A program made the position numbers and the translations under genes. Positions 1 through 46,200 of a stretch of DNA of 64,000 nt are shown here, piece by piece. Each line of letters starts with the position of its first letter. The stretch's first letter is position 1. The stretch lies in IMG/VR virus record IMGVR_UViG_3300010162_000009, one strand, 5' to 3'. Source of the stretch: a virus. Its lineage: Duplodnaviria; Heunggongvirae; Uroviricota; Caudoviricetes. The notes below the pieces were generated by a model, which saw nothing but the letters and a program-made list of their open reading frames with translations, was not told the origin of the DNA and did not search any database.

Positions 1-673
1 TATTAAGTTCTGCTGTTTGCGCCATTTTTTCGAGAGTTTGAGTAACTTTGTCATTTAGTTGTAGCAACTGTTCAAATTTATTTTTCAACTCTTCCATATC
101 ACTATTTGCTTTATCCTGACCGTCGGTTAGTTGAGATATGTCTATAACATTATCTCCAGGTTGTAATCCACCTTCTTCACCTTCCATATCAATATCCTCA
201 TACTCTTCTTCACCTTCCATTGGAGCAGCATTCGGGTCAGCGTTTGGATCCATACCAACATTTGGGTCTGCCGGAGCAGCGTTAGGGTCTGCATTAGGAT
301 CTGCTGGTGGTGGAGCATTCGGGTCAGCGTTTGGATCCATACCAGCATTTGGGTCTGCCGGTGGAGCGGCGTTAGGGTCAGCATTAGGATCCGCTTCCTC
401 ACCTTCTTCTTCAAGTCTGGTATTAAAACCATATTCGGTTATCATCTTGAATCTTTTTGCGTAATTCCTAACAGCATTTTCCTTCATAATTCTTTCGTTA
501 TCATCATCTTTTATATCAGAAAGAATCCACGCCTTTGTTGCTTCTATGTTTGACAATTCTTCAAATACCGGTTCATTAGGATCCCAAGAAGGTTTAAAAA
601 TATCAAAACAACCATCCAAAGTTTCTTTTATCTTATATCCTTTGTAGGAGTATTTCTTAACATATTTTTTCAT
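1..673 (-). CDS. Hypothetical protein, 3'-truncated by the window edge. N-terminus [21 protein letters not shown]; contains DPNA/ADPN Pro-Asp-Asn low-complexity repeats. Paralog of 25193-25567.
   Basis: Manual translation of the minus strand from ATG at 673..671. The ORF track misses it because no stop lies in the window. The N-terminal 20 aa are near-identical to the product of 25193-25567. The plus-strand ORF 138-464 is its antisense artefact. Confidence 0.5.
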
Positions 674-676
674 AGT

Positions 677-844
677 AATTAGTCGTTTAATAGAAGTTTA
701 TTATCTTCGGTTATCAGAGTTTTTGCACAAGCAGTATATCGCTTTTCCAATAAACCATCGTTTTTTCTGATGCGTTTTACCGTTTCTACCGGTTTTTCAC
801 CCAATAGCGCACCTATCCTATTTTTTTGTTCCGATATAGTCATT
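677..844 (-). CDS. Small hypothetical protein (~55 aa, [18 protein letters not shown]...).
   Basis: Manual minus-strand ORF below the 60-aa track threshold, packed between flanking minus-strand genes. Confidence 0.25.
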
Positions 845-867
845 TTAGTAAAATATTATTTTTCTTA

Positions 868-1056
868 TTATTCAACATCCCCACTAAACAGATTAGGATG
901 TTGTTCAACCATCTCAATTTTTTGAACAGGAACAACTTTAACTTCTGGTGCTGGGGTTTTTGCCTCTGTTGTTTGAATAATTTCCGTGCGTTTTTTATGC
1001 GGAAAAACCAACTTTGGCATGTTATGAATGTGTTTTCTATTATATCTTTGTAACAT
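868..1056 (-). CDS. Small hypothetical protein (~62 aa from internal ATG).
   Basis: ORF track 868-1083. Start trimmed to the ATG at 1056 to avoid overlap with the upstream gene stop at 1061. Confidence 0.25.
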   Translation of the reverse strand: MLQRYNRKHIHNMPKLVFPHKKRTEIIQTTEAKTPAPEVKVVPVQKIEMVEQHPNLFSGDVE

Positions 1057-1060
1057 ATTA

Positions 1061-1891
1061 TTAAGTATTTTTGATTTCGTCAATTACCTGTCTTATTTCA
1101 AATAGTTTCATTGCTTTGTTAATATCAGAAGAATCTTCAAATAATATTTGTTCTTTTAGTTGAAGGAATTTTTCCTTTAATTCTACATCTTCTGTTTCTT
1201 TGATTAACGTATTAAGAGAAGTTGTTATTGATTTTTGATATTCAACCAACACACCTTGTGGTTTAGTTGTTTTAATCAATTCTCTTACTAAATTCATTTC
1301 TTCGGAGGTTAATTTACCGGCGTATTTTTTATTGAAATCCTCAATTTTACTTTCAGGTGTTACTTGTTCATTAATTCCATTATCCTTTAATTTAAGGTTT
1401 TTAGCAAACGCATTTTTACATTCTATAAATAAGGATAAATCTTTGGATTTACCTTCATATAGTAAATAATCAAGAGTTCTGAAAACAGGAATATCTTTTG
1501 TTAATACCCACTTTTCTTTTTCAGTACCTTCGGTTAAAACATTACCCTCTTTCATGGTTCCCCATGGATTTTCAGTTTCTGTTATAATTTCATTGTTCAA
1601 CAAAAACCAAAACAATTTGTCATTGGCTTCAGACAACTCCTTTTTCGGAATATCACTAATAGAATTTAAAATTTCATTGACATATTCGTCTTTTGCACTT
1701 TCTTTGATATAAGAAGATACACCTTCCTCAATCTGTGCATACAAATCGTATTGCCTCTTTAAAATTTTATTTTCCTTTATCAGTTTGATGTAATTAGCGA
1801 TTACTTTCTTACCTTCATCGGTTTCATACAACTTACCAATTTTGGAGTTAAAGAAACTATTCATCTTATTAAATGACCTTATTTGTCTCAT
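1061..1891 (-). CDS. Hypothetical protein, 276 aa.
   Basis: Long ORF. ATAAATAG motif 17 bp upstream of the start. Confidence 0.6.
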   Translation of the reverse strand: MRQIRSFNKMNSFFNSKIGKLYETDEGKKVIANYIKLIKENKILKRQYDLYAQIEEGVSSYIKESAKDEYVNEILNSISDIPKKELSEANDKLFWFLLNNEIITETENPWGTMKEGNVLTEGTEKEKWVLTKDIPVFRTLDYLLYEGKSKDLSLFIECKNAFAKNLKLKDNGINEQVTPESKIEDFNKKYAGKLTSEEMNLVRELIKTTKPQGVLVEYQKSITTSLNTLIKETEDVELKEKFLQLKEQILFEDSSDINKAMKLFEIRQVIDEIKNT

Positions 1892-1908
1892 ATAATTTGA
1901 TTTTTAAT

Positions 1909-1916
1909 ATAAATAG
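1909..1916 (-). promoter_or_regulatory. Conserved phage promoter-like motif (plus strand ATAAATAG, sense strand CTATTTAT) upstream of 1061-1891.
   Basis: Motif instance 1 of about 18; see findings. Confidence 0.5.
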
Positions 1917-2070
1917 AAATATTTTATTTTAAATTATTTTACAAAATGATTTTCCGCATAACCCTCTTCTTTGACATCTAATATGATTTTAAATGGAATT
2001 AGAATGGAAATAGACATGTAATTATTGAAATATCAAAAAAAAAATTATATTTAAATAAAATGGTTAGTAG

Positions 2071-3552
2071 ATGGGTAAAAAAATAACGACAGAAGACTGG
2101 ATAAAAAAAGCAAGTAAAGTTCATAATAACAAATATGACTACTCAAAAACTATATATACCAATGCCAGAGAAAAGGTTCACATAATATGTCCTGAACATG
2201 GTGAGTTTTTTCAAACACCAGACGCACATGCAAGAGGACAAGGTTGTCAAGCATGTGGAGGAAATAAACCGCTAACAAGAGAAGTTTGGATTGAAAGAGC
2301 AAAAATAGTTCATGGTGATAGATACGATTATTCAAAAGTTGAATATGTTAATTATGATAAAAAGGTTTGTATAATCTGTCCCATTCACGGGGAATTTTGG
2401 CAAACAGGAAATAGTCATTTGAAAGGGTTTAATTGCCCAAAATGTTATGGTAGAAATAGAACAACAGATGAATGGATTGAAAAAGCAAAACAGATTCATG
2501 GTGATAAATATGATTATTCAAAATCAGAGTATATTGTTCTTCAAGAAAGGGTGTGTATTATTTGCCCAATACATGGGAAATTTTGGCAAACACCAGCAAA
2601 CCACTTAAGAAAAAGGGGATGTCCAAAATGTATAGGAAAAAATAAAACAACCGAAGAACTTATTGAAGAAATGAGAGAAATTCATGGTGATAAGTATGAT
2701 TATTCAAAGGTTGAGTATACTTCTGCTATAACAAAAGTTTGTATAATCTGTTATAAACATGGGGAATTTCAGCAAACACCAAATAAACATTTGGGGTGGA
2801 AGGGATGTCCAAAATGTGTGGGAAAAAACAAAACAACAGAAGAGTGGATCAAAGAAGTAAAACAAGTTCATGGTAATAGATATGATTATTCAAAAGTCAA
2901 ATATATTGATAGTATAAAAAAAGTTTGTATAATTTGTTCAGAACACGGTGAGTTTTGGCAAACACCTCTGAACCATTTTAACAGCAACGGTTGTGCGAAA
3001 TGTGTTGGAAAAAATAAAACAACCGATGAATGGATTAAACAAGTAAAACAAGTCCACAACAATAGATATGATTATTCAAAATCTATATATACTAACGCTA
3101 AAGAGAAGGTGTGTATAATATGTCCTGAACATGGGGAATTTTATCAAATCGCATTCAGTCACTCAAATGGGAGTAAATGTCCCAAATGTATTTCCTCTAA
3201 AATGGAAGATAGTGTGTCTGAATTTTTAAACAAACATAGTATTTTATATGAAAAAAAATATCGCGGTTTTGCTTGGTTAAAATATAAACAACGTTTAGAA
3301 TTAGATTTTTATATCCCATCATATAATATTGGTATTGAATGTCAGGGTCAACAACATTTTATTTCTATTAATTATTTTGGGGGGCAAGATGGTTTTGAAA
3401 AAACAAAAATTCGTGATAAAATAAAAAAACGATTGTGTGAAAAACATAATATTCCACTATTCTATATTAATTATAATGACAATATTGAAGATAAACTTAA
3501 TACTTTATTTTTCAAAAGCAAACACATAAAAATAGACAACACCTATTTATAA
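2071..3552 (+). CDS. Zinc-ribbon repeat protein. Six ~68-aa repeats ([12 protein letters not shown]...[23 protein letters not shown]) plus a C-terminal PD-(D/E)XK/Vsr-like nuclease-like domain (ELDFY...IECQGQQHF). Paralog of 20244-21266.
   Basis: Internal repeats visible in the translation. CxxC and H-G-E motifs. The C-terminal E-x-D...E-C/H-Q-G-x-Q-H motif is shared with 20244-21266. Confidence 0.6.
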   Translation: MGKKITTEDWIKKASKVHNNKYDYSKTIYTNAREKVHIICPEHGEFFQTPDAHARGQGCQACGGNKPLTREVWIERAKIVHGDRYDYSKVEYVNYDKKVCIICPIHGEFWQTGNSHLKGFNCPKCYGRNRTTDEWIEKAKQIHGDKYDYSKSEYIVLQERVCIICPIHGKFWQTPANHLRKRGCPKCIGKNKTTEELIEEMREIHGDKYDYSKVEYTSAITKVCIICYKHGEFQQTPNKHLGWKGCPKCVGKNKTTEEWIKEVKQVHGNRYDYSKVKYIDSIKKVCIICSEHGEFWQTPLNHFNSNGCAKCVGKNKTTDEWIKQVKQVHNNRYDYSKSIYTNAKEKVCIICPEHGEFYQIAFSHSNGSKCPKCISSKMEDSVSEFLNKHSILYEKKYRGFAWLKYKQRLELDFYIPSYNIGIECQGQQHFISINYFGGQDGFEKTKIRDKIKKRLCEKHNIPLFYINYNDNIEDKLNTLFFKSKHIKIDNTYL

Positions 3553-3576
3553 TATATATTATAACCGTATTCAACA

Positions 3577-5523
3577 ATGGCAAAAAAACAGGATAAACCC
3601 ATAAGCATATATCAAGCACTGATTAAAACGTTAACAGGGTGGGATAATGGAGAATATAATACGACTGTTCAATCAAATCGTCAACGTGTCTATAATTATA
3701 ATGATGATATTATTATTAGAACAAAGGATAAGAACGAATATGAATCTGCACTCATACAAGCAAAACAAGATAAATTTTTGAGTTCAGCATGGGTACACGC
3801 ACATGCAAGTACTAACATGTTGGATATGAAGAGTATATCCTATGTAGATTTAATGATGCGGGACTGTGAAAACATGTCCCAAAGACCGGAAATTTATCAA
3901 GCATTAAACATTATGGCATCGGAAACATGTAGTCTTGGAGGCGACGGTTCCTTAATCAACATAACATCCAAATCAGAAAGAATAAAATTCATACTTGAAG
4001 ATCTTTTTGTAAACAGACTTCAAATACACTTAGAATTATTTCCATTAGTCCGTACCATGTTGAAGTACGGTAATGAATATAAATTGTTAAACATTCAAGC
4101 AAAGAATGGGATTCTTGGATGGCATTCAATACCAGTAGTACAAATGAGAAGATTCCAAAGTTTACATCCTTACGGAATTATGCCGAGAACAACTGGTGAA
4201 CAAGCAAATGATATGACACAACTTCAACCACATTTTGAATTTCTTGGGGCAGGTGCACCACAATCTTTTCATAATTGGCAAGTTGCGCATTTTAGATTAA
4301 TGAATGATATGATATGCCAACCTTATGGATGTAGCGCAATTAATGGTGCTAGACAACAGTGGCGTAGACTCATGATGGCAGAAGATCATATGCTTATACA
4401 CATGGCGGATCGTGCATATGAACGATTGATATTTAAAATCGACGTTGGTTTAATTGATGATGCTGACGTTGAAGCATACGTACAGGAAATTGCAAACCGA
4501 TTTAAAAGGACACAGAGAATAGACCCACAAACTGGACAACTTGATTTGTCTAAGAATCATATGAGTCCCTTAGATGATTTCTTCATTCCGGTTAGGGGTA
4601 ATAACGATGCAAGTAAGATAGAAACACTTGCTGGTAGTTCAGCATTTGATAAATTCAAGGATATGTTAGAATATCTTCACTTACAAATGCTCACCGCATT
4701 AGGTGTCCCCAAAGTATTTTTGAATTTTGAAGCATCTCCAGCAGAAGGTAGAACATTATCAATGACCGACATAAGATTCGCTAAACTCATCAATCGTTTT
4801 CAACAGTGTGTAATATTAGAGTTAAATAAGATTGCAATTATTCATCTATATCTATTAGGATTTGAAGACGATTTAAATAATTTTACAATAACGATGAATA
4901 ATCCTTCAACTCAAGTTGAAATTATGAGAGTTGAAGAAATGCAGAAGAAAATGCTTGCTGTTAGAGATGGTCTAACAAATACGGATGCCGGTCTACCAAT
5001 ATATTCATGGAAAAAGGCGTTGAAAGAAATTATGAAATTTTCAGATGCTGAAATTAATCAAATATTGGAAGATATGCGTTTTGAAAAAGCGGTATCAACA
5101 GAATTGTCATTAACACAACAAATTATTAAGAAAACAGGAATATTTGATAAAGTTGATACATTATATGGTGAACCAAATTCAGAATATGATTATTCAGTTA
5201 CTGAAATAGGTCAAGCCGAAGCGGCGGCCGGTGGCGGTGGCGGCGGTGGAGGTGGTGGCATGGGCGGCGACATGGGTATGGGCGACATGGGTGGTGGCGA
5301 AGAAGGTGAAGCCGGAGCAGAAGAAGGTGGTGCGCCAGTAGAAGGTAGTGGAGAAGCACCTGCACCAGAAACCGGAAATACGGAAGGTGCGCCGATGGAA
5401 AATAAAAGGAGAAGAAAAGAAAATATTATTACAGAAAATAGATTTCCTATAAACGAGGAATTTGAGAATTTGATAGTAAAAATGGATGAGTATTTGAAAA
5501 GTAAAGATGATTTTCCCCAATAA
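3577..5523 (+). CDS. Portal vertex protein, T4 gp20-like, with a C-terminal poly-Gly and acidic extension.
   Basis: Segments IETLAGSSAFDKFKDMLEYLHLQMLTALGVP and MTDIRFAKLINRFQQ resemble the conserved gp20 core as I recall it. 648 aa. The GC-rich stretch 5215-5400 encodes GGGGGGGGGGMGGDMGMGDMGGGEEGE. Confidence 0.6.
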   Translation: MAKKQDKPISIYQALIKTLTGWDNGEYNTTVQSNRQRVYNYNDDIIIRTKDKNEYESALIQAKQDKFLSSAWVHAHASTNMLDMKSISYVDLMMRDCENMSQRPEIYQALNIMASETCSLGGDGSLINITSKSERIKFILEDLFVNRLQIHLELFPLVRTMLKYGNEYKLLNIQAKNGILGWHSIPVVQMRRFQSLHPYGIMPRTTGEQANDMTQLQPHFEFLGAGAPQSFHNWQVAHFRLMNDMICQPYGCSAINGARQQWRRLMMAEDHMLIHMADRAYERLIFKIDVGLIDDADVEAYVQEIANRFKRTQRIDPQTGQLDLSKNHMSPLDDFFIPVRGNNDASKIETLAGSSAFDKFKDMLEYLHLQMLTALGVPKVFLNFEASPAEGRTLSMTDIRFAKLINRFQQCVILELNKIAIIHLYLLGFEDDLNNFTITMNNPSTQVEIMRVEEMQKKMLAVRDGLTNTDAGLPIYSWKKALKEIMKFSDAEINQILEDMRFEKAVSTELSLTQQIIKKTGIFDKVDTLYGEPNSEYDYSVTEIGQAEAAAGGGGGGGGGGMGGDMGMGDMGGGEEGEAGAEEGGAPVEGSGEAPAPETGNTEGAPMENKRRRKENIITENRFPINEEFENLIVKMDEYLKSKDDFPQ

Positions 5524-5598
5524 TACCGCAGAATTTGAATTAACTACATGGGTATTTTGTGGAAAGTAGAATTTTTTGAAAAAACACAAAAAAACTGT

Positions 5599-5606
5599 CT
5601 ATTTAT
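5599..5606 (+). promoter_or_regulatory. Orphan CTATTTAT motif in the 430-bp intergenic region after the portal gene; no CDS within 170 bp.
   Basis: Exact motif on the plus strand. It is followed by a GC-rich structured element at 5843-5886. Confidence 0.3.
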
Positions 5607-5842
5607 ATTAGAATAAAAAAAGTGATGTTAGTTTTGAATACATATACGTCGGGTTTACCCAAATTTCATCTTAATGAGCAACCAGAGGATAATATACCAT
5701 TGGGAGTGATTTCTATGTAATTTTTGTACATCCACACATCATAATATCAAACTCCCATTGAAATAATCTTTGGGGGTTTTTTGTTTTTTTATACGTTCTT
5801 TGACATGGTGGTTAAAAAATATGTCGCGTTGGACAAGAGGTA

Positions 5843-5886
5843 AGTCACCGCGCTTTCACCGCGGAGTGAGGGGATCGTTACCCCTA
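5843..5886 (+). other. Pair of GC-rich stem-loops (tcaCCGCG-ctttcac-CGCGGagtga and AGGGG-atcgtta-CCCCT). Candidate structured RNA or terminator.
   Basis: Inverted repeats read directly from the sequence. Local GC is far above the window average. Confidence 0.3.
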
Positions 5887-5953
5887 CGCGATACTATGAT
5901 CAGAAAATTTTCTATTTCTTATTTTTGTGGTATATTTTTAAAAAAAATTTAAT

Positions 5954-6415
5954 ATGAAAAACGGTTTTATCACGCTTCAATTTCATGCACAGGATCTCGA
6001 ATCATATTCAAATATGAGTCTAATAGACTTTTATAATATGAAGGAGAATGAGAGGAAATCTCAGTATGCTGCTGAAAAGTCGATTAAAGATGCAAAACTT
6101 AAAGTTATTAATGATATGGTTGGAAAAATATTTCTAATCAATTTCAATGATAATTCTTACAGGGTTTTTGTGCACGACACACCATTAAAAGTGTATTCTG
6201 ATACAGTGAACACAAAAACCCCGATAATCTGTATAATGAAGAATAAGAGTGTTTATTTCGATAGTTATACATACGTTCAATCGGAATGGTTGGTTGGAAT
6301 GAATGTCAAATCATGTGTTGAAATAACTAAAAAAGAACGTGACGTGATAGTTAAACAAATTGAAAAAATTTCATTAGATGTTTCAAACATAATTATCAAG
6401 AATACTGTTATATAG
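5954..6415 (+). CDS. Hypothetical protein, 153 aa.
   Basis: ORF track; tight spacing with the next gene. Confidence 0.5.
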   Translation: MKNGFITLQFHAQDLESYSNMSLIDFYNMKENERKSQYAAEKSIKDAKLKVINDMVGKIFLINFNDNSYRVFVHDTPLKVYSDTVNTKTPIICIMKNKSVYFDSYTYVQSEWLVGMNVKSCVEITKKERDVIVKQIEKISLDVSNIIIKNTVI

Positions 6416-6459
6416 GTTTTAGATTAACATCTATATATCTTTATAATAACTACAAAATT

Positions 6460-6846
6460 ATGATCTTTAACAAGGAATTGATTAGGATATTTAAAACATT
6501 TAATGAAAATTTGAAACTGTGTACATATAATGATATGCTTAATGTTCAAAGCAGCCGGTTAGTGATTAAAGAACATAGAGATTTACGTATTATTACAATA
6601 TACGCTGCACAAGAAAATATAGGAAGGGAAGTAACTTTAAAAGAGTGTATTGAGATACTATCAAAATTCAATGAGGAGTCTATTATACAGACAATGGACT
6701 TCAGTAGAGCAGTTTTGTGTTGTGAAAATATTACATTCAAAGAAAGTGGTGATAAATTGATAATGAAGGCAAATGGAATACAACAACGGTATTTGTGTAG
6801 TTGTGGTAGAACATCACCTTCTTTAGATTTTGAGGATGAAGAATAA
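6460..6846 (+). CDS. Hypothetical protein, 128 aa.
   Basis: ORF track; its stop lies 2 nt before tRNA-Asp. Confidence 0.5.
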   Translation: MIFNKELIRIFKTFNENLKLCTYNDMLNVQSSRLVIKEHRDLRIITIYAAQENIGREVTLKECIEILSKFNEESIIQTMDFSRAVLCCENITFKESGDKLIMKANGIQQRYLCSCGRTSPSLDFEDEE

Positions 6847-6848
6847 TT

Positions 6849-6921
6849 GGTGCGTTGGTGTAGTGGTTAACATATCTGCTTGTCACGCAGGGGATCATGG
6901 GTTCGAATCCCATACGCACCG
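6849..6921 (+). tRNA. tRNA-Asp (anticodon GTC).
   Basis: Cloverleaf folded by hand. Acceptor ggtgcgt/acgcacc; T-arm atggg-ttcgaat-cccat; anticodon loop ttGTCac. Confidence 0.8.
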
Positions 6922-6924
6922 CAT

Positions 6925-6998
6925 CGGAGAGTAGCTCAGTGGGAGAGCAATAGATGGTCAAAGTCTATGTGACGAAAGTTCGATTCTTTCTTCTCCGA
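6925..6998 (+). tRNA. tRNA with a non-canonical anticodon arm. Simplest fold gives a 6-bp stem atagat/gtctat and loop ggTCAaa, i.e. anticodon TCA (UGA-reading, suppressor-like). Identity uncertain.
   Basis: Good acceptor stem (cggagag/ttctccg), D-arm (tagctcagtgggagagc) and T-arm (gaaag-ttcgatt-ctttc). U33 is replaced by G in the proposed loop. Confidence 0.55.
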
Positions 6999-7004
6999 CA
7001 AAAT

Positions 7005-7076
7005 GGTAATGGTGGTGTAGTGGTAGCATGTCAGATTGTGGATCTGTTGGGTTTGGTTCGAGTCCAAACATTACCC
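7005..7076 (+). tRNA. tRNA-His (anticodon GTG).
   Basis: Acceptor ggtaatg/cattacc with discriminator C; anticodon loop ttGTGga; T-arm tttgg-ttcgagt-ccaaa. Confidence 0.75.
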
Positions 7077-7109
7077 AAAAAATTGTATATTTAATAAAAT
7101 TTAAATAAT

Positions 7110-7289
7110 ATGAAACAATGTCATGGTACATGCGATTGTCTAGAAGAGAAAACAGTACCCGTTGAAATAAGAAAGGAACCTGATGTAGAAGAGATAGGTT
7201 GGTTTTGCAAACAACTTGGGGTTTGGTTTATAGAACCAAAAGCATGGGGAATCTGTATGGATCCCGATGACATGGGTAGTTGTTTTTAA
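7110..7289 (+). CDS. Small Cys-rich protein (59 aa, MKQCHGTCDCLEEK...CMDPDDMGSCF) embedded in the tRNA cluster.
   Basis: Manual ORF between tRNA-His and tRNA-Asn; below the track threshold. Confidence 0.3.
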   Translation: MKQCHGTCDCLEEKTVPVEIRKEPDVEEIGWFCKQLGVWFIEPKAWGICMDPDDMGSCF

Positions 7290-7296
7290 TCAATAT

Positions 7297-7368
7297 TGGA
7301 ATATAGTTCAGCGGTAGAACACCTGACCGTTAATCAGGGAGTCGTAGGTTCAAATCCTACTATTCCAG
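7297..7368 (+). tRNA. tRNA-Asn (anticodon GTT; C at position 33).
   Basis: Acceptor tggaata/tattcca; D-arm gttc-agcggta-gaac; anticodon stem cctga/tcagg with loop ccGTTaa; T-arm gtagg-ttcaaat-cctac. Confidence 0.7.
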
Positions 7369-7374
7369 CTCATT

Positions 7375-7917
7375 ATGAAGTATATAATTGTAATATTATT
7401 ATGTTTTTGTGTTGAATGTTTTGGACAAACAAGACGTTCACCACAAAGAAATATTAGAAGACAGAATACCCAAACGTGTTTTGTGGAGTTTGGTGGACCA
7501 GGTCAAGGGTTTACATTCAATTTCGATACACGTATTTTAGGTGAGGGGGATTTTGGTCCAGGATTTCGTATAGGTGCAGGGGTTGGTTTCGATGGTGAAT
7601 TGTTCGATGAACCGGGTATAGGTATGTTTGCTGTTATTCCGGTTGGGGTAGATTGGGTTTTTGGTTTTAAAAATAATTATTTTGACATAGGATCCAGAAT
7701 ATTATTCTATTCCAGATTACCATATCATTTTTATAATACAGGTAATATCGCTAATACAAAATATCCAAACGATAAAATGATATTAATAATTGGAGGAAAC
7801 TATAATCCGGATCCTATTGGAAGTAGGTATTTTTTGAAAATAGGTGGGGGAGTATCAATGTCGAGGAATAGAATTCTTCCGTATATGAACTTCGGAATGG
7901 GATTCGTAATAAAATAA
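7375..7917 (+). CDS. Secreted Gly-rich beta-strand protein with a signal peptide, possibly outer-membrane beta-barrel-like; 180 aa.
   Basis: N-terminal signal MKYIIVILLCFCVECFGQ; alternating hydrophobic and Gly-rich pattern. Lies between tRNA-Asn and tRNA-Pro. Confidence 0.5.
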   Translation: MKYIIVILLCFCVECFGQTRRSPQRNIRRQNTQTCFVEFGGPGQGFTFNFDTRILGEGDFGPGFRIGAGVGFDGELFDEPGIGMFAVIPVGVDWVFGFKNNYFDIGSRILFYSRLPYHFYNTGNIANTKYPNDKMILIIGGNYNPDPIGSRYFLKIGGGVSMSRNRILPYMNFGMGFVIK

Positions 7918-7927
7918 AATTTTAAAT

Positions 7928-7999
7928 ATGGGTGTGGTCCAGTGGTAGGGCGGTAGGTTTGGGACCTACAAATCGTGGATTCGATTTCCACCACCCATA
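7928..7999 (+). tRNA. tRNA-Pro (anticodon TGG).
   Basis: Acceptor atgggtg/cacccat; anticodon stem gtagg/cctac with loop ttTGGga; T-arm gtgga-ttcgatt-tccac. Confidence 0.8.
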
Positions 8000-8029
8000 C
8001 GAATAAGTGGTTTATTTCCACAAACTAAT

Positions 8030-8111
8030 GCGGTTGTGGCGGAATTGGTAGACGCACCAGATTTAGGATCTGGTTCCGAAAGGAGTGGGAGTTCGAGTCT
8101 CTTCATCCGTA
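8030..8111 (+). tRNA. tRNA-Leu (anticodon TAG), type II with a long variable arm.
   Basis: D-arm tggcggaattggtagacgc as in bacterial tRNA-Leu. Anticodon stem ccaga/tctgg with loop ttTAGga. Variable arm tccgaaaggagtggg. One acceptor-stem mismatch. Confidence 0.7.
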
Positions 8112-8117
8112 CAAAAA

Positions 8118-8193
8118 GACCTTATAAATCAGTTGGGTTAGAGCAATTGATTTTTTAATCCGCAGGTCGGTAGTTCAAGTCCACCTGTGGTCA
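8118..8193 (+). pseudogene. Degenerate tRNA-like element. D-loop-like tcagttgggttagagca and T-arm-like ggtagttcaagtccacc are present, but no consistent anticodon stem.
   Basis: Resembles a tRNA-Lys(TTT)-type sequence, but I could not fold the anticodon and T arms canonically. Confidence 0.25.
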
Positions 8194-9799: not shown

Positions 9800-10737
9800 T
9801 GGAAACAAAAAAAGAAGATAAGGTTATTACCCCTAAAAGAAAAGAAGGATATAGGGAATGTTCTGTATATAGCATTCCAGGCATAGGTTATAAACATTAT
9901 GAGAATATATCTACTTATATGGCGGTCAATAGCATCAAATACAAAAATATTGAAGGTATTTGTTTCGTTGGCGATGTTCACGGCGAATGGAAGACTCTTG
10001 GTTATAAAGCAGTCGAACAATATGGATTAGAAAATTATCTTATTATTCAACTCGGTGATTTTGGTATTGGATTTAATTCTGAAGAATATAATAAAATAGA
10101 ATTAAAGAAACTTAATAGTAAACTCAAAAAGAAAAATAATCAATTGGTTGCACTGCGCGGGAATCATGATGATAAATCCTATTTCACCCCCGAATATTCT
10201 AAATCATATTCCAACATAAATTTAGTACCTGATTATACTATTCTTGAAATAGAATATGAAAGGGATGTTCCGGATGATGGTATTCAAACAACTTCTGGGT
10301 ACATGAATATATTATGTATAGGTGGTGGATTAAGTATTGATAGAACTGAAAGGTGGAAATGGAAAATATCGAAACCCGGTAGAAATTACTATTGGGATGA
10401 TGAAATGCCGGTATATGACGAATTAAAGTTGAATGAAATTAATAAAGATTATCCGAATGATATTCATGTTGTAGCGACACACACCTCTCCGTCATTTACA
10501 TTTCCATTTACAAAAACGGGTATTCACCATTGGATGATGCGTGATATGCAACTGAGACATGATAGTGAAGTGGAAAGAGGGGCAATGGATAAAATTTTCC
10601 ATAAACTTAAAGAAAATCAAGAAAATTTATCCGAATGGTATTACGCACATTTTCATGCAACGCAAAGCATAACGATAGAAGATGTTTCTTTTCGATTGTT
10701 GGATATATATGAATTTAGATCTATCGTATTGAAATAA
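9799..10737 (+). CDS. Calcineurin-like metallophosphoesterase.
   Basis: Motifs GDVHGEW, GDFG and GNHDD. Start moved to the ATG at 9799 (METKKEDK), adjacent to the upstream stop. Confidence 0.7.
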   Translation: METKKEDKVITPKRKEGYRECSVYSIPGIGYKHYENISTYMAVNSIKYKNIEGICFVGDVHGEWKTLGYKAVEQYGLENYLIIQLGDFGIGFNSEEYNKIELKKLNSKLKKKNNQLVALRGNHDDKSYFTPEYSKSYSNINLVPDYTILEIEYERDVPDDGIQTTSGYMNILCIGGGLSIDRTERWKWKISKPGRNYYWDDEMPVYDELKLNEINKDYPNDIHVVATHTSPSFTFPFTKTGIHHWMMRDMQLRHDSEVERGAMDKIFHKLKENQENLSEWYYAHFHATQSITIEDVSFRLLDIYEFRSIVLK

Positions 10738-19675: not shown

Positions 19676-20188
19676 ATGAACACAAAAAATTGTCGTATCA
19701 GAAGTCAATATCCCAGAACATATATTGGTGATATTATTGATTACCCAAATCCATGGTTTGGTATTTTTCCTCCACATCCATGGTACGGTGAACCGGGTTA
19801 TAGTCCTGGTTATAGTGGAAATACCACTACCTTTGCAGATGCGTTGAAGGAAATTACTAAATCTAAATATAGTTTAACCCATCGCGTTATTAATGACGAA
19901 AAATCTTTTTCGGTTGAATTCAGTTGTCCTGGATTTAATAAGGAAGATATTGAGATCATGTTACAAAATAATGTTTTGACAGTAGAAGTTAGAAAAGAGG
20001 AAGAGGGTGAAACCGAAGGTACAAAATATTTCTTCGCAAAAGAAGGTAAGGAGAGTTTTGTACTTCCGAAAGAATGTGATTTATCTACTATTACAAGTAA
20101 ATACGAAAATGGTATTTTGAGCGTGTCGGTAGAGAAAATCGAAAAGGTTCCGGAAAAACCGGAAATTAAAAGAATTGAAATAAATTAA
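19676..20188 (+). CDS. Small heat-shock protein (Hsp20/alpha-crystallin domain).
   Basis: ACD-like segment SFSVEFSCPGFNKEDIEI...VLTVEV...ENGILSVSVEK. Confidence 0.65.
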   Translation: MNTKNCRIRSQYPRTYIGDIIDYPNPWFGIFPPHPWYGEPGYSPGYSGNTTTFADALKEITKSKYSLTHRVINDEKSFSVEFSCPGFNKEDIEIMLQNNVLTVEVRKEEEGETEGTKYFFAKEGKESFVLPKECDLSTITSKYENGILSVSVEKIEKVPEKPEIKRIEIN

Positions 20189-20219
20189 ATTTAGGTACAT
20201 GTAATTCTTTTTTATATCC

Positions 20220-20227
20220 CTATTTAT
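20220..20227 (+). promoter_or_regulatory. CTATTTAT promoter-like motif 17 bp upstream of 20244-21266.
   Basis: Exact motif on the plus strand. Confidence 0.45.
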
Positions 20228-20243
20228 ATCTAAAAAGATATAA

Positions 20244-21266
20244 ATGGGATATAAATTAGATACAAAAAAATGTATAGAGCGGTTTAATTCAATACATGGT
20301 AATGAAAAATACGATTATTCAAACGTTGTATATGTGAATCAAAACACTAAAGTAGAAATTACTTGTAAAATGTGTGGTAATATATTCAACCAAATACCAA
20401 AAAGTCATTTTATCGGAAAGGGTTGTCCAAACCCAATCTGCGTTGTTAAAAGATGTGTTAGAAGTAAAAAATACAATTACAAAAGGAAAATAAAAGGATA
20501 TGCACATACAACAGAAGAGTGGATTAAAATTGCAAAAAATATACATGGTAATAAATTTGATTACAGTAAAGTGGAATATGTTCATAATAAAATAGAAATA
20601 TGTATAATTTGCCCAATACATGGAGAATTTTTCACCAAACCAATCAGTCATTTAGAAACAACTTATGGTTGTAAAAAATGTTGGGAGGATGTTAAAAAAA
20701 AATTGTTTAATTTAGATAGGGATAAGTGGATTGAGATGGCAAAAAAAAGACATGGTAATAAATTTGATTATAGTAAGGTAGAATATGTAAATCAACATAA
20801 ACATGTTTGTATAATTTGTCCAATACATGGAGAATTTTATCAGAATCCAAATAATCATTTACGTGGAAGGGGTTGTGAAAAATGTAAAGGAGAAGATAAT
20901 ATTTATGAACAACGGTTATATAATGTTTTGAATAATGAATTACCAAATATAAAATGGGTTAGGAATTTCAGAGATAAATCATTGTTTGGAAATTTTGAAT
21001 TAGATTTTTATAATGATGAATATAAAATAGCAATTGAACATCAAGGTAGTCAACATTTTTTTCCTGTAAGACATTTTGGTGGTGTAAAAAAGTATAACGA
21101 AGTTGTTCAATGTGATATTTTAAAACATTCAATTTGCCAAAAAAATAATATAACTTTATTATATTTTGCATACGAAAAAATTAAAATACCTGAAGATTAT
21201 ATAGATATAGTATATCAAAAAGAAAGTGAATTAATAAATAATATAAAAATAATAATTAAAAATTAG
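20244..21266 (+). CDS. Zinc-ribbon repeat protein with a C-terminal nuclease-like domain ([21 protein letters not shown]); paralog of 2071-3552.
   Basis: Three HG(N/D)K(F/Y)DYSKVEYV...[10 protein letters not shown] repeats plus the shared C-terminal motif. Confidence 0.6.
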
Positions 21267-21274
21267 TTAAATAT

Positions 21275-23239
21275 ATGAGTAATAAAATTATAGGTATAGA
21301 CCTTGGGACCACATCGTCATGTGTGTCGGTAATGGAAGGTGGTAAAGCAGTTGTAATACCAAACAGCGAAGGTAGAAATACCACACCTTCAGTGGTAGCA
21401 TTTTTAAAGGATGATGTATTAGTAGGCGATGCTGCTAAACGTCAAATGGTAACAAATGCAGAAAACACAGTGTATTCAATAAAACGTTTCATGGGGGAAA
21501 CTTACAGTTCATCTATAAAAGAACATGATAAAGTTTCGTACAAAATTGTAAAAGGTAATAACGATACTGTTCGTGTTAAGATTGGTGAACGCGAATTTAG
21601 TCCTCAAGAGATATCTGCAAGAGTCTTACAAAAAATGAAGAAGACGGCTGAAGATTATTTAGGACATGAAGTTACAAAATCTATCATAACTGTTCCAGCT
21701 TATTTCAACGATTCCCAACGTCAAGCAACCAAGGATGCTGCTGAAATAGCAGGATTAGAAGTTCTCAGAATCATCAACGAACCAACAAGTTGTGCTTTAT
21801 GTTTTGGATTGGATAAAGCTAAAGAAGATATGAAAATAGCAGTTTATGATCTGGGTGGGGGTACATTTGATATTTCAGTTCTATCATTGGGTTCCGGTAT
21901 TTTTGAGGTTTTATCTACCTCTGGGGATACGTTTCTTGGAGGTGACGACGTTGACCGTGTTATTATAAACTTCCTTGCTGATGAATTTCAGAAAGAATTT
22001 TCTTTGGATTTGAGAAAAGATCCTATGGCATTACAGCGGTTAAGAGAAGCAGCAGAAAAAGCAAAAATCGAATTATCCTCTTCTATTCAAACTGAAATCA
22101 ATCTACCATACATAATGCCGGTTGATGGTATCCCTAAACACCTTGTACAAACTATCACCCGCGCTAAATTTGAACAAATGATTTCAGATATTGTTCAACG
22201 CACCATTGAACCATGTAAAACCGCATTAAAAAGCGCAAATTTAACCATAAATGATATTGATGAAGTAATTCTTGTTGGTGGTAGTACACGTATTCCTGCT
22301 GTTCAAGATGCTGTTGAAAAATTCTTTGGTAAAAAACCGAACAAGAGTGTAAATCCGGATGAAGCAGTATCTTTGGGAAGTGCTATACAAGGGGCAATCC
22401 TCTCTGGTGAGGAGACTGATCTTCTTCTTTTAGACGTTACCCCATTATCACTTGGTATTGAAACTCTCGGTAGTGTATTCACGAAGTTGATTGAAGCAAA
22501 CACAACAATTCCTGTAGAAAAATCACAAATATTCAGTACGGCAGTTGATAATCAACCGGCAGTAACAATCAGGGTTGGACAAGGTGAGCGACCATCCTTT
22601 AATGATAATAAACTGTTAGGTATATTTGATTTGGATGGTATTCCACCAGCAAGGAGAGGTGTACCTCAAATTGAAGTAACATTCAGCATCGATGTGAATG
22701 GTATTATGTCCATTAAAGCAAAGGATAAAGGAACGAACAAGGAGCAGAGTATTACCATTCAATCTTCATCTGGTTTATCTTCCGAAGAGATTGAAAGAAT
22801 GAAGCGTGAGGCTGAAGAAAATGCTGACGCTGATAAGAAGAAAATGGAAAAGGTACATGCGTTGAATAAAGCAGATTCATTAATTTTCTCTACTGAAAAA
22901 CAATTTGAAGAGTTAGGTGATAAAGTTACCGAAGAAGATAAGTCAAAAATTCAACCAATAGTAGATGAACTGAAAGAAGTTCTAAAAAATCAGGAACATG
23001 AAAAGGTTGAAGATTTGTCGAAAAAGTTAGAGGAAGCGTGGATACCAATCAGCGCAAAATTATATGCGCAAAGTAATCCTGACGGTAATTCAAATCCATT
23101 TGCTAATATGGGTGGTAATCCTTTTGCTGGTGGAGATAATCCATTTAGTGGATTTGATTTCAGCAAAGGTGCGCCAAACCCTACCGATGATACCTCTGCA
23201 CCGGAATGGGCGGAAGAAGTAGATCCTGATAAAAAGTAG
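21275..23239 (+). CDS. dnaK: Molecular chaperone DnaK (Hsp70).
   Basis: Full-length Hsp70: [28 protein letters not shown], and substrate-binding and lid regions. Confidence 0.95.
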
Positions 23240-43234: not shown

Positions 43235-46200
43235 CTATTGAGAATCATTTCCTAAATAAATAGCACCATCCTTATCTACCGTAAATCCTGGTCCTAACTT
43301 AATCTTAATGGAATCACCTAAAGCTAACACTGGAAGAGAGATGGTGAAAATATCAAGGGTGGTACCGCTACTTCGTGGCATATATAACTTTCCATTGTAA
43401 ATTTGACTTGTGTTTCGAGTTATATTTGCAGGAATTGTTGTCGTGCGAGTAGTTTCTGTTACCAAATCAAAAATCTCAAGGGTGGCACCACCACCACTTT
43501 GTGGCATATATAACTTTCCGTTGAAAATTTGACACGTAAAACGCTGCATATGTGTAGGAAGTGTTACCGTGCGAGTGGTTTCTTCTTCCAAATCAAAAAT
43601 ATCAAGTGCGCTGCCACTATGTTGTGGCATATATAACTTTCCGTTGAAAATCTGACTTATCCATCGCTGCCTACTTGCAGGAAGCGTTATCGCACGACCA
43701 GTTTCCGTCACCAAATCAAAAATCTCAATGGTGGCACCACCACCACCTTGTAGCATATATAACTTTCCGTTGAAAATCTGACTTGTGTATCGCCACATAT
43801 TTGTAGGAAGTGTTACCGTGCGAGTAGTCTCTGTTACCAAATCAAAAATCTCAAGGGTGGTACCACCAGTTCCTGGTATATATAACTTTTCGTTGAAAAT
43901 TTGACTTGTGTCTCGTTCCATATCTGTAGGAAGCGTTACCGTGCGAGTTGTTTCCCTAACCAAATCAAAAATCTCAAGGGTGGTACCACCAGTTCCTGGT
44001 ATATATAACTTTTCGTTGAAAATTTGACTTGTTTTTCTACCCATATTGGGAACTGTTACCGTGCGAGTGGTTTCAGTTACCAAATCAAAAATATCAAGGG
44101 TAGTATTCCAATCACTTGGTATATATAACTTTCCGTTGAAAATTTGACTTGTTTGTCTCTGCATATTTGTAGGAAGTGTTACCGTGCGAGTAGTTTCTTC
44201 TCCATTGGTAATTTTAATATTTGGATAAGCAGGAAACCTTATTTCATTATTAACTTTTTCAACCTCTTGTCCACCAAGCATAATTTTCGGAATATCAGGA
44301 TATACCGGAAGGATAAACTCATTACCAACCTTCTCTACCGGAATACCTAAATCAAAAATCTCAAGAGCGGTACCACCATCTTGCGGCATATATAACTTTC
44401 CGTTGAAAAATTGACATGTAGCCTTCCATACAGATGTAGAAAGTGTTGCTGTGTATTCTTCTTCTGTTACCAAATCAAAAATCTCAAGGATATTACCACC
44501 ATCTGGTATATATAACTTTCCGTCGAAAATATGACTTGTTTGTCGTCCCATGTTTGTAGGAAGTTCTACCATGCGAGTAGTCTCTGACACCAAATCAAAA
44601 ATCTCAAGGGCGGTGCCATTATGTTGTGGTAGATATAACTTTCCGTTGAAAATCTGACTTGTTTGTCTCTGCATATTTGTAGGAAGTGTTACCGTGCGAG
44701 TGGTTTCCGCTATCAAATCAAAAATCTCAAGGGTATTACTACCATCTCGTGGCATATATAACTTTCCGTTGAAAATTTGACTTGTTCTTCGCCACATATT
44801 TGTAGGAAGTGTTACCGTGCGAGTAGTCTCTGTTACCAAATCAAAAATCTCAAGGGTGGTACCACTATATTGTGGTAGATATAACTTTCCGTTGAAAATC
44901 TGACTTGTTTGTCTCTGCATATTTGTAGGAAGTGTTACCGTGCGAGTAGTTTCAGTTACCAAATCAAAAATTTCGAGAGTGGTACCATTATCTCGTGGCA
45001 TATATAACTTTCTGTTGAAAATTTGGTTTGTTATTCGCCCCATACTTGTAGGAAGTGTAACCGTGCGAGTGGTTTCTGTAACCAAATCAAAAATCTCAAG
45101 GGTGGTATTCCAATTCCCAGACATATATAAATTTCCGTTGAAAATTTGACTAGTACGTCTCTGCATATTTGTAGGAAGTGTTACCGGGCGACCAGTTTCT
45201 GTACCAATTTTTACAGATGTATAAGGTGGAAATACTAATTTATCTCCTATCTTTTTTACATTATTTCCTACAATGTTAAAAATTTCAAGGTTTTTCCCAA
45301 AATTTTCTGGTATATATATTTTCTCATCGAAAATTTGAATTATACTTCGTTGCATGTTTCTAGAAAATCTTACCACGTGAGTAGTTTCTGTTACCAAATC
45401 AAAGATCTCGAGGATGGAATTCCCTGCCATATATAACTTTCCCTTGTAGATTTGACTTCCAGGACGATTCATGTTTGTAGGAAGTGTTACCGTGCGAGTA
45501 GTTTCTGTTACCAAATCAAAGATCTCGAGGGTTGTACCTTGCTCCTGTGGTATATATAACTTATCATCATAAATTTGACTTGTGTATCGCAGCATATCTG
45601 TAGGTAGTTCTACTGTTCGCATTTCTTCAGTGGTTAAATCAAATATTTCCATAGTTGTATAACCAGAACTTGGTATATATAATTTACCATCGTATAGTTG
45701 CCCAGTATATCTCAACACATCTGTTGGAAGGGTAATATATCGCGTTTCCTCGGTATTTAAATCAACAACTTCAAGTTTCACACCAGAACTTTCCGGTATA
45801 TATAACTTTTCGTTATATAAAAAACTTGTTAGTTTATTTGTCATCATGTCACTCAAACTAGGGAGTCCAATCATACTCACTTCTTCAGTTTTTAAATCAA
45901 ATACTTCAATCATTTGGTACATAACTGAAGGTATATATAACTTATCATTATAAATATGACTTGTAAGTCTTCCTATAGTTCCATTAAGATCTACTGTTCG
46001 CATTGTTTTAGAACTTAAATCAAATATTTCGAGAACAACACTACATAGTAAATATAATTTACCATTGTAAATTTGACTACCCAATCTCTGAAATTCAGTA
46101 GGAAGTTCTATTGTTTCTATTATTTCTATACTTTCTTCTCCAATACTAGCGAATTGTACTGCCGTGTCAATTTTCTCTAATTTTGCTTCATCTATTTCCG

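Follow-up and report, generated by a model that had tools for sequence, protein, structure and literature searches.

Does a jumbo phage that keeps the standard genetic code carry a transfer RNA (tRNA) that reads the stop codon UGA? The question is raised by a tRNA gene with an enlarged anticodon arm at positions 6925 to 6998 of the 64,000-nucleotide (nt) stretch of IMG/VR virus record IMGVR_UViG_3300010162_000009, which we analysed over its whole length (the window); the original prediction had read this odd tRNA as a probable UGA decoder. The answer matters either way. An active product would be a natural enlarged-anticodon-arm tRNA used by a virus: as a weak suppressor in a phage with an unchanged code it would bear on how code changes begin, and as a nonstandard decoder resembling the frameshifting tRNA SufJ it would be of interest for recoding and genetic-code expansion. 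If the product is inactive, automatic “tRNA-SeC” or “suppressor” calls in phages are no evidence of recoding, with the second caution that the isotype of a phage tRNA is not inferable from its scaffold alone. We find that the odd tRNA is a genuine, correctly folding class I tRNA gene with an unusual anticodon arm. Our tentative reading, to which we assign a probability of roughly 36%, is that it is a decoding-impaired derivative of a Phe-type tRNA, young in its lineage and kept as a foldable unit of a coprocessed Asp-X-His block, and that it takes no part in a genetic-code change.

The gene is present at the coordinates first given. ARAGORN calls a tRNA at 6925-6999, one base beyond the discriminator, with the anticodon tca at position 34 and, because of that anticodon, the label “SeC.” The Rfam tRNA model RF00005 matches 6925-6998 with 52.7 bits (E = 8e-10; threshold, 29), the six neighbouring tRNAs scoring 45 to 71 bits, and this general model was the only one reported for the locus. 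The minimum-energy fold is a cloverleaf with an acceptor stem of 7 base pairs (bp), one of them G.U, a D stem of 4 bp, a T stem of 5 bp and an anticodon stem of 6 bp. Direct reading finds U8, A14, G15-C48, G18G19, A21, G46, U54-U55-C56, A58 and G53-C61, which we take to be the set of conserved tertiary positions. ARAGORN, Rfam and the fold bear out the first description: the acceptor, D and T arms are canonical and the anticodon arm is not. A canonical fold with a standard anticodon came from none of the programs, and ARAGORN also arrived at TCA. The sequence, anticodon arm included, is identical in four assemblies from different samples (L003-L006), which rules out a sequencing or assembly artefact; over their whole length these loci match the window at 99.99% identity or more and so carry no evolutionary or selection signal. 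Descent from a neighbouring tRNA by duplication was likewise rejected, the top identity among the neighbours being 66%. No exact or near-exact copies were found in IMG/VR, and the E. coli genomes held nothing similar to the odd tRNA.

The anticodon call rests wholly on whether one U.G pair is counted as stem. The candidates for this sixth, wobble pair are the first and last loop bases, T6955 and G6963. Closed, it completes a 6-bp stem (atagat/gtctat) around the loop GGUCAAA; opened, it leaves a 5-bp stem and the 9-nt loop UGGUCAAAG. Both descriptions of the arm had been given beforehand and both are accurate. In the nearest-neighbour model the 6-bp form is the more stable one, by 2.6 kcal/mol. 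The Rfam alignment skips the anticodon loop, placing 8 residues against 6 model positions, which amounts to the second form. ARAGORN's own 5-bp anticodon stem arises by leaving A27-U43 unpaired. In no register does the arm consist of a 5-bp stem and a 7-nt loop with U33 and a purine at 37. The centred register, chosen by ARAGORN and the energy model, has G32 and G33 in front of UCA. In the 3′-anchored register the 3′-most seven loop bases, GUCAAAG, make a fully canonical loop, G32-U33-CAA-A37-G38, on a standard 5-bp stem: T6958 is U33, A6962 is A37, G6963 is G38, T6955 is position 32 and can wobble with G38, and G6956-G6957 are two extra 5′ bases. A 5′-anchored register gives GUC, without U33.

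SufJ offers a structural comparison for the second of these. In this tRNA-Thr a base (C31.5) is inserted on the 5′ side of the loop and takes the 32.38 interaction; nucleotides 33 to 37 are superimposable on a normal loop and form three zero-frame pairs, and the outcome is +1 frameshifting (PMC4238358). Together with the GUCAAAN stretch that serves as a normal 7-nt loop (G-U-CAA-A-N) in two class-I-length phage tRNAs (L129 and L136), the SufJ structures support the 3′-anchored register. From the letters alone, the anticodon, and hence the codon read, cannot be told. The reading of the arm as “best read as UCA, UGA decoder” accordingly stands only in part: UCA is present in the register that ARAGORN selects, one of at least two, and as a UGA decoder it needs a G at the near-invariant U33 and an uncompensated sixth pair, on a scaffold that appears to be of Phe type.

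That tRNA-Phe-type scaffold is the new element of our analysis. A BLAST search of the 74 nt against 50,697 phage records returned tRNA-Phe(gaa) as the top match, in a record that is really an Enterococcus tRNA operon in which Phe follows tRNA-Asp, as in the window. The D stem, A26, the T-loop UUCGAUU and A73 are identical in the two tRNAs, and the variable loop is one base off (GUGAC versus GUGUC). The anticodon stems show a compensated difference only (ATAGA/TCTAT versus ATGGA/TCCAT), and the T stems differ by two compensated pairs (GAAAG/CTTTC versus GGCAG/CTGTC). We then scanned 185,579 bacterial and archaeal species, one genome per species, with a pattern of the exact D-arm, 17 free positions, GTGNC and NNNNGTTCGATTC; all 99 of the 99 cellular tRNAs with the D-arm, GTGNC and GTTCGATTC carried the anticodon GAA. 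The odd tRNA has this body signature in full (D-arm, G44-U45-type variable loop, U59-U60 T-loop and A73), sharing with bacterial and archaeal tRNA-Phe(GAA) the D-arm TAGCTCAGTGGGAGAGCA, A26, the GUGNC variable loop, the T-loop UUCGAUU (U59, U60) and A73. It is unlike tRNA-Phe in having no GAA, a loop of 9 rather than 7 nt, C1-G72 instead of G1-C72, and no nucleotide 20. Phe is the probable, best-fitting origin of the body because of A73, the similarity of the anticodon stems and the small number of loop changes required. Acquisition of the odd tRNA and tRNA-Asp together from a Firmicutes Asp-Phe operon was set aside; judged by eye, the tRNA-Asp of the window looks closer to that of a related phage (L007), so the Asp-Phe adjacency is probably coincidental.

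The loop can be derived from a cellular Phe loop (Y32-U33-G34-A35-A36-R37-N38) in two events. In one path, insertion of GG after position 32 and a G34-to-C change give U32-[GG]-U33-C34-A35-A36-A37-G38; in the other, UC is inserted after G34 and U33 changes to G. A deliberate UCA would take about four substitutions plus two flanking insertions, and the comparison suggests that “UCA” arises only as a by-product of a two-event change from a Phe loop. Charging would suffer in both registers. Phe identity rests on G34, A35, A36 and A73, to which E. coli adds U20 and U59; in T. thermophilus the strongest of the determinants is G34. Bacterial Trp identity rests on G73, the anticodon and A1-U72 (PMC9976931). 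The odd tRNA carries A73, U59, C1-G72 and G15-C48 and has no nucleotide 20. With no GAA in the loop, the full G34, A35, A36 set is absent: two of these three anticodon determinants of phenylalanyl-tRNA synthetase (PheRS), A35 and A36, are kept in the CAA register and one, A36, in the UCA register. The odd tRNA would thus be a weakened PheRS substrate at best. It fails Trp identity through A73 and C1-G72, and the leucyl-tRNA synthetase (LeuRS) elements A15-U48 and A20a are absent, which makes it a predicted poor LeuRS candidate.

The gene is also confined to its lineage. A portal search found no relatives between 100% and 76% identity. In the closest relatives, at 76% and 73% portal identity (L007 and L008), the corresponding position also holds a tRNA cluster, which comprises Thr, His, Pro, Asp and Asn in L007, while that of L008 comprises Thr, Tyr, Glu, His, Asp, Asn, Gln, Pro and Leu; neither cluster contains the odd tRNA or a tRNA-Phe. 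Among the portal-guided loci at 51 to 76% identity (L007-L012, L014-L017), only L007 and L008 have a cluster.

Genome content was examined over some 86 kb, the genome as a whole being roughly 269 kb long. Under code 11, coding sequence fills 90% of the window, with 46 TAA, 16 TGA and 11 TAG stops, several of the TGA stops lying in ATGA start/stop overlaps. TGA accounts for 22% of stops (16/73), compared with 27% in L007 and 26% in L008, both of which are without the odd tRNA. The 10 longest open reading frames (ORFs) are essentially unchanged under code 4, one gaining a single residue. We found no readthrough target: reading through all 16 TGA stops adds 0 to 58 residues and fuses no genes, and backup stops are in no significant excess after TGA (4/16) relative to TAA (6/46). 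The genes for the portal, protease, tail fibre and major capsid protein (MCP) are free of in-frame TGA codons. The MCP is full length (P0133, 661 amino acids [aa]) on a contig with the same signature as the portal, and the capsid module is 91 to 92% coding under the standard code and uses TGA as a stop. The earlier remark that the standard code leaves the long ORFs intact was correct and extends to the capsid module. No release factor, aminoacyl-tRNA synthetase or tRNA-modification gene occurs among the 40 largest ORFs of the window. Over the portion covered, nothing indicates TGA recoding (code 4, TGA to Trp), nor does the odd tRNA look like a canonical Trp-type suppressor, given A73, C1-G72 and the noncanonical loop. 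A UGA suppressor role leaves no genomic signature here, whether in TGA share, in readthrough products or in companion release factor or synthetase genes.

Several lines converge on a decoding-impaired Phe-type derivative: no register is canonical, PheRS determinants are lost, the genome shows no sign of needing a new decoder, relatives do not have the gene, and a second, decayed tRNA lies in the same cluster. Under this reading the anticodon loop of a Phe-type tRNA would have grown from 7 to 9 nt. The product would be transcribed with its neighbours and excised by RNase P and 3′ processing, with CCA added by the host enzyme, since no tRNA of the cluster encodes it. The enlarged loop would then cripple standard decoding, either through the missing U33 and the uncompensated sixth pair or through a 2-nt bulge before U33, and at least one of G34, A35 and A36 would be lost to PheRS. 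The intact body may persist because the gene is young, because a foldable unit aids processing of the Asp-X-His precursor, or for both reasons. The tRNA-Asp, the odd tRNA and tRNA-His form one tight block that would have to be processed from a single precursor.

The second decayed tRNA is an element at 8118-8193 (+), directly after tRNA-Leu. It scores 24.6 bits with the Rfam tRNA model (gathering score, 29), receives no ARAGORN call, has a Lys(UUU)-like 8-nt loop, TTTTTTAA, and shows mispairing in the D and anticodon stems; by its looks it is a tRNA of the same cluster in decay. In being lineage specific, having a noncanonical loop and lying in a cluster with this element, the odd tRNA resembles degenerate phage tRNAs, but it is unlike typical pseudo-tRNAs in its flawless body, with all stems paired and a score of 52.7 bits.

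That flawless body is the main difficulty for the impaired-derivative reading, and four further points weigh on the same side. With 21 to 22 stem pairs and all tertiary positions intact, at least two mutational events fall within the 9-nt loop, and under purely neutral decay the second event would strike the loop only ~12% of the time; a processing role of the body, if real, would remove this objection. The loop resembles a proper anticodon loop in both registers (UCA followed by A37-A38, or G-U-CAA-A-G). Enlarged GUCAAA arms recur in phage arrays and are absent from the cellular set, which hints at phage-specific selection. The scaffold pattern that returned only Phe from cells matches two viral tRNAs in IMG/VR, a Trp(cca) with G73 and an Ala(tgc) with A73, so that Phe ancestry is not certain and in phages the scaffold does not predict the isotype. 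The portion of the genome covered, stated above, also belongs here. The two viral tRNAs, which have the D-arm, variable-loop type and T-loop found only in tRNA-Phe among cells, lie at 4699-4771 (−) of L194 (Trp) and 9845-9917 (+) of L193 (Ala).

The alternative that survives best is a decoder of UUG, with U6958 as U33 and C-A-A as the anticodon, possibly frameshift prone or resistant to a host anticodon nuclease; we regard it as possible but doubtful. By analogy with SufJ, U6955 would pair with G38 as position 32 and the two extra G residues would be accommodated on the 5′ side. Charging would be weak, by PheRS (A35, A36, A73 and U59 kept) or by LeuRS (A73), and the tRNA might slip +1 at UUG-A. 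In its favour, GUCAAAG obeys the canonical loop rules (U33, purine 37), and its U-C-A fits the UNR U-turn motif. Of the two shortest derivations from a Phe loop, one leads to this register and retains U33, A35, A36 and R37, and the canonical G-U-CAA-A-N loops of L129 and L136 are found in phage tRNAs of class I length. A canonical 33-37 segment after a 5′ insertion has its precedent in SufJ (PMC4238358), and nuclease evasion through changes in the anticodon loop is known from phage tRNAs (PMC10264068). The odd tRNA is like SufJ, and like Suf-class tRNAs generally, in that an insertion has enlarged its loop (to 9 nt), with the extra bases, in one alignment, on the 5′ side beside the stem. It is unlike SufJ in having two extra bases rather than one and in occurring naturally in a phage rather than by laboratory selection, and no natural precedent for a 2-nt 5′ insertion was found. 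The nearest-neighbour model, moreover, closes the U.G pair and so centres UCA; G34, the strongest PheRS determinant, is lost; and A15-U48 and A20a are not there for LeuRS. The window contains 297 in-frame UUG codons, 116 of them followed by A, so the phage would harm its own proteins if Phe were inserted, or the frame shifted by +1, with any efficiency. Nor is there a frameshift target above control level: at UUGA, one site has a +1 frame open for at least 40 codons beyond the stop, against 0 to 18 for control quadruplets. A decoder of UUG would also have to be reconciled with the absence of the gene from relatives.

Next stands the proposal with which the locus was first described, a weak opal suppressor, which we judge unlikely. 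On the 6-bp stem, GGUCAAA would present U34-C35-A36 and compete with RF2 at UGA, inserting Phe or another amino acid at low efficiency, with C-terminal extensions, interference with host termination or a step towards TGA recoding as possible results. ARAGORN's tca agrees with it, as does the minimum-energy status of the 6-bp/7-nt form. Opal decoders of the Trp(UCA) type have UCAAA at positions 34 to 38, and tRNAs for codons that start with U have the motif A36-A37-A38. Natural stop-codon decoders have 6-bp anticodon stems, in the case of tRNA-Pyl and probably also of tRNA-Sec. The genome is AT rich (32% GC), and an unassignable tRNA with a Trp-like acceptor, in an array otherwise without Trp (L018, described below), fits a UCA reading in that contig. 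Sup-UCA TGA suppressor tRNAs occur in TGA-recoded phages and in a standard-code relative, where they have been proposed as the first recoding step, and some phage suppressor tRNAs were expected by the authors to be noncanonical (bioRxiv 10.1101/2021.08.26.457843).

The odd tRNA is like those phage Sup-UCA tRNAs in being phage encoded, in the AT richness of the genome and in offering UCA in one register, but it is unlike them in lacking a canonical 7-nt loop with U33, in the absence of TGA depletion (22% versus 26 to 27%) and in an acceptor stem and discriminator that are not Trp-like. The phage is likewise unlike TGA-recoded phages, with no in-frame TGA in its structural genes and no RF1 or tryptophanyl-tRNA synthetase (TrpRS) companion in the window. 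G occupies the near-universal U33, and the sixth pair lacks the compensation that tRNA-Pyl has in a shortened variable loop or connector. A deliberate UCA is the costlier derivation from a Phe loop, only A36 is kept for PheRS, and A73 and C1-G72 do not suit bacterial Trp identity. Backup stops show no significant excess, readthrough merges no gene, and the closest relatives have no such tRNA.

The “SeC” label itself can be put aside. A tRNA-Sec has a 13-bp acceptor/T helix (8/5 or 9/4), a 6-bp D stem with a 4-nt loop, and a long variable arm; the odd tRNA, with its 7/5 acceptor/T helix, 4-bp D stem, 7-nt D-loop and 5-nt variable loop, was rejected as one. UCA is available to it in one register only and with G33, and in its 6-bp form the anticodon stem would have the length seen in tRNA-Pyl and probably tRNA-Sec; its normal G18G19 and T-loop set it apart from both tRNA-Sec and tRNA-Pyl, with none of the architecture of either.

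A scan for the architecture (GCTC/GAGC D-arm, a 19-nt-type arm with GGTCAAA, and the T-loop) returned one match in IMG/VR (L013), two in JGI metagenomes (L018 and L019) and none in the 185,579-species set; the three matches lie in dense phage-type tRNA arrays on unrelated scaffolds. The recurrence of enlarged GUCAAA arms is suggestive, although the motif was imposed by the scan pattern and had no control motif beside it. L018 (positions 1-5683) is a 5.7-kb contig with 27 tRNA genes that cover every amino acid except Trp and Gln. Its one unassignable tRNA has a Trp-like acceptor (A1-U72, G73), an encoded CCA and the loop GGUCAAAC on an extended stem. L013 (500-4800) and L019 (2700-7600) are unrelated phage contigs whose tRNA arrays include a transfer-messenger RNA and several noncanonical tRNAs, among whose oddities are hairpins inserted in the D-loop, 6-, 8- and 10-nt anticodon loops, and a “Leu(caa)” of 75 nt. 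Other viral tRNAs of class I length also contain GUCAAA (L129, L136, L147/L165/L179, L155, L156 and L160). L129 and L136, which have no long variable arm, amount to short “Leu(CAA)” tRNAs; in L147/L165/L179, L156 and L160, most of which ARAGORN labels Phe(aaa), the stem contains GG and a UCAAAAG/C loop follows it; and L155 has the 9-nt loop UCAAACAUU and the ARAGORN label Val(aac).

A broader possibility is that extended anticodon stems with GUCAAA loops, placed on unrelated scaffolds (the Phe-type one here, the Trp-like one of L018, and those of L013 and L019), form a phage-restricted class of natural opal suppressors or +1 frameshifters at U-UGA/UUG-A, or of nuclease-immune tRNAs. We consider this improbable; if true, a standard-code jumbo phage would possess a natural nontriplet or nuclease-proof decoder.

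Classic anticodon nuclease targets are the Tyr/His/Asn/Asp and Glu/Gln/Lys sets, and the isotypes Glu, Asp, His and Asn of the cluster, with Tyr, Gln and Thr added in the relatives L007 and L008, match them; the isotype set fits a counterdefence role of the entire cluster. A nondecoding tRNA mimic, serving as decoy, inhibitor or sensor for a host tRNA-targeting nuclease or modification enzyme without entering the ribosome, could draw on these isotypes, on documented phage tRNA counterdefences (PMC10264068, PMC11464382) and on enlarged GUCAAA arms on four unrelated phage scaffolds against 0/185,579 cellular species genomes, but it is improbable, as no partner gene is seen in the window, the recurrence pattern itself required GGTCAAA and was run without a control motif, and cellular genomes may purge defective tRNAs.

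The source of the window is a jumbo T4-like myovirus; metagenome contigs with an identical portal reach 268,981 bp. The tRNA cluster (Table 1) lies downstream of the gp20-type portal gene (3577-5523) and consists, according to ARAGORN, of Glu(TTC), Asp(GTC), the odd tRNA, His(GTG), Asn(GTT), Pro(TGG) and Leu(TAG). Promoter and terminator scans were uninformative, at or below shuffled background.

TABLE 1 Positions of the odd tRNA gene, its arms and candidate anticodons, and of the surrounding tRNA genes in the window
Feature	Position	Strand	Remarks
Odd tRNA gene	6925-6998	+	74 nt, class I; no encoded CCA; discriminator A73 at 6998
Acceptor stem, 5′ strand CGGAGAG	6925-6931	+	Pairs with 6991-6997 (TTCTCCG); C1-G72, G7.U66 wobble; fold, ARAGORN
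D arm GCTC-AGTGGGA-GAGC	6934-6948	+	4 bp, 7-nt loop, G18G19, no position 20
Anticodon arm ATAGA / TGGTCAAAG / TCTAT	6950-6968	+	19 nt versus the usual 17; Rfam, fold, ARAGORN
Candidate anticodon TCA, centred register	6958-6960	+	Would read UGA; needs G33 and 6-bp stem; ARAGORN
Candidate anticodon CAA, 3′-anchored register	6959-6961	+	Would read UUG; direct reading, Phe loops, L129, L136, SufJ (PMC4238358)
Variable loop GTGAC	6969-6973	+	GTGTC in cellular Phe tRNAs of the same body
T arm GAAAG-TTCGATT-CTTTC	6974-6990	+	T-loop same as in Enterococcus and DPANN tRNA-Phe
tRNA cluster, whole	5823-8112	+	Downstream of portal gene; ARAGORN
tRNA-Asp(GTC)	6849-6921	+	3 nt past the stop of ORF 6460-6846; odd tRNA 3 nt further on
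tRNA-His(GTG)	7005-7076	+	Begins 6 nt past the discriminator of the odd tRNA

A cysteine-rich ORF of 59 aa lies between tRNA-His and tRNA-Asn (7110-7289, +) and is also called as a gene in assemblies L003-L006. Some capsid-protein homologues of this phage clade (P0129 and P0210) occur in metagenome-assembled genome bins that bear the label Firmicutes or Bacilli, which hints weakly at the phylum of the host. The gp21-type prohead protease (Peptidase_S77; 50021-51832, −) has a LAGLIDADG_3 domain in the middle of its 603-aa ORF, probably an intein or homing-endonuclease insertion, and intein domains are present in the portal genes of relatives (P0004, P0012 and P0016). Just upstream of the portal, 2071-3552 (+) encodes a 493-aa HNH/DUF723/DUF4379 homing-endonuclease-like protein with internal repeats at an offset of ~186 nt (self-matches at 68 to 77% identity). 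A second DUF4379 protein is encoded at 20244-21266 (+), and related DUF723/DUF7487 genes also flank the capsid module (L121).

The window further encodes a tail fibre protein with an S74 chaperone domain, nucleotide-metabolism genes and DNA methylases. Hsp20, a full-length DnaK/Hsp70, a TPR-containing histidine kinase and a 2256-aa Kelch/beta-propeller repeat protein, the last adjoining the prohead protease, are together encoded at 19676-23239 (+), 58085-60421 (−) and 43235-50005 (−).

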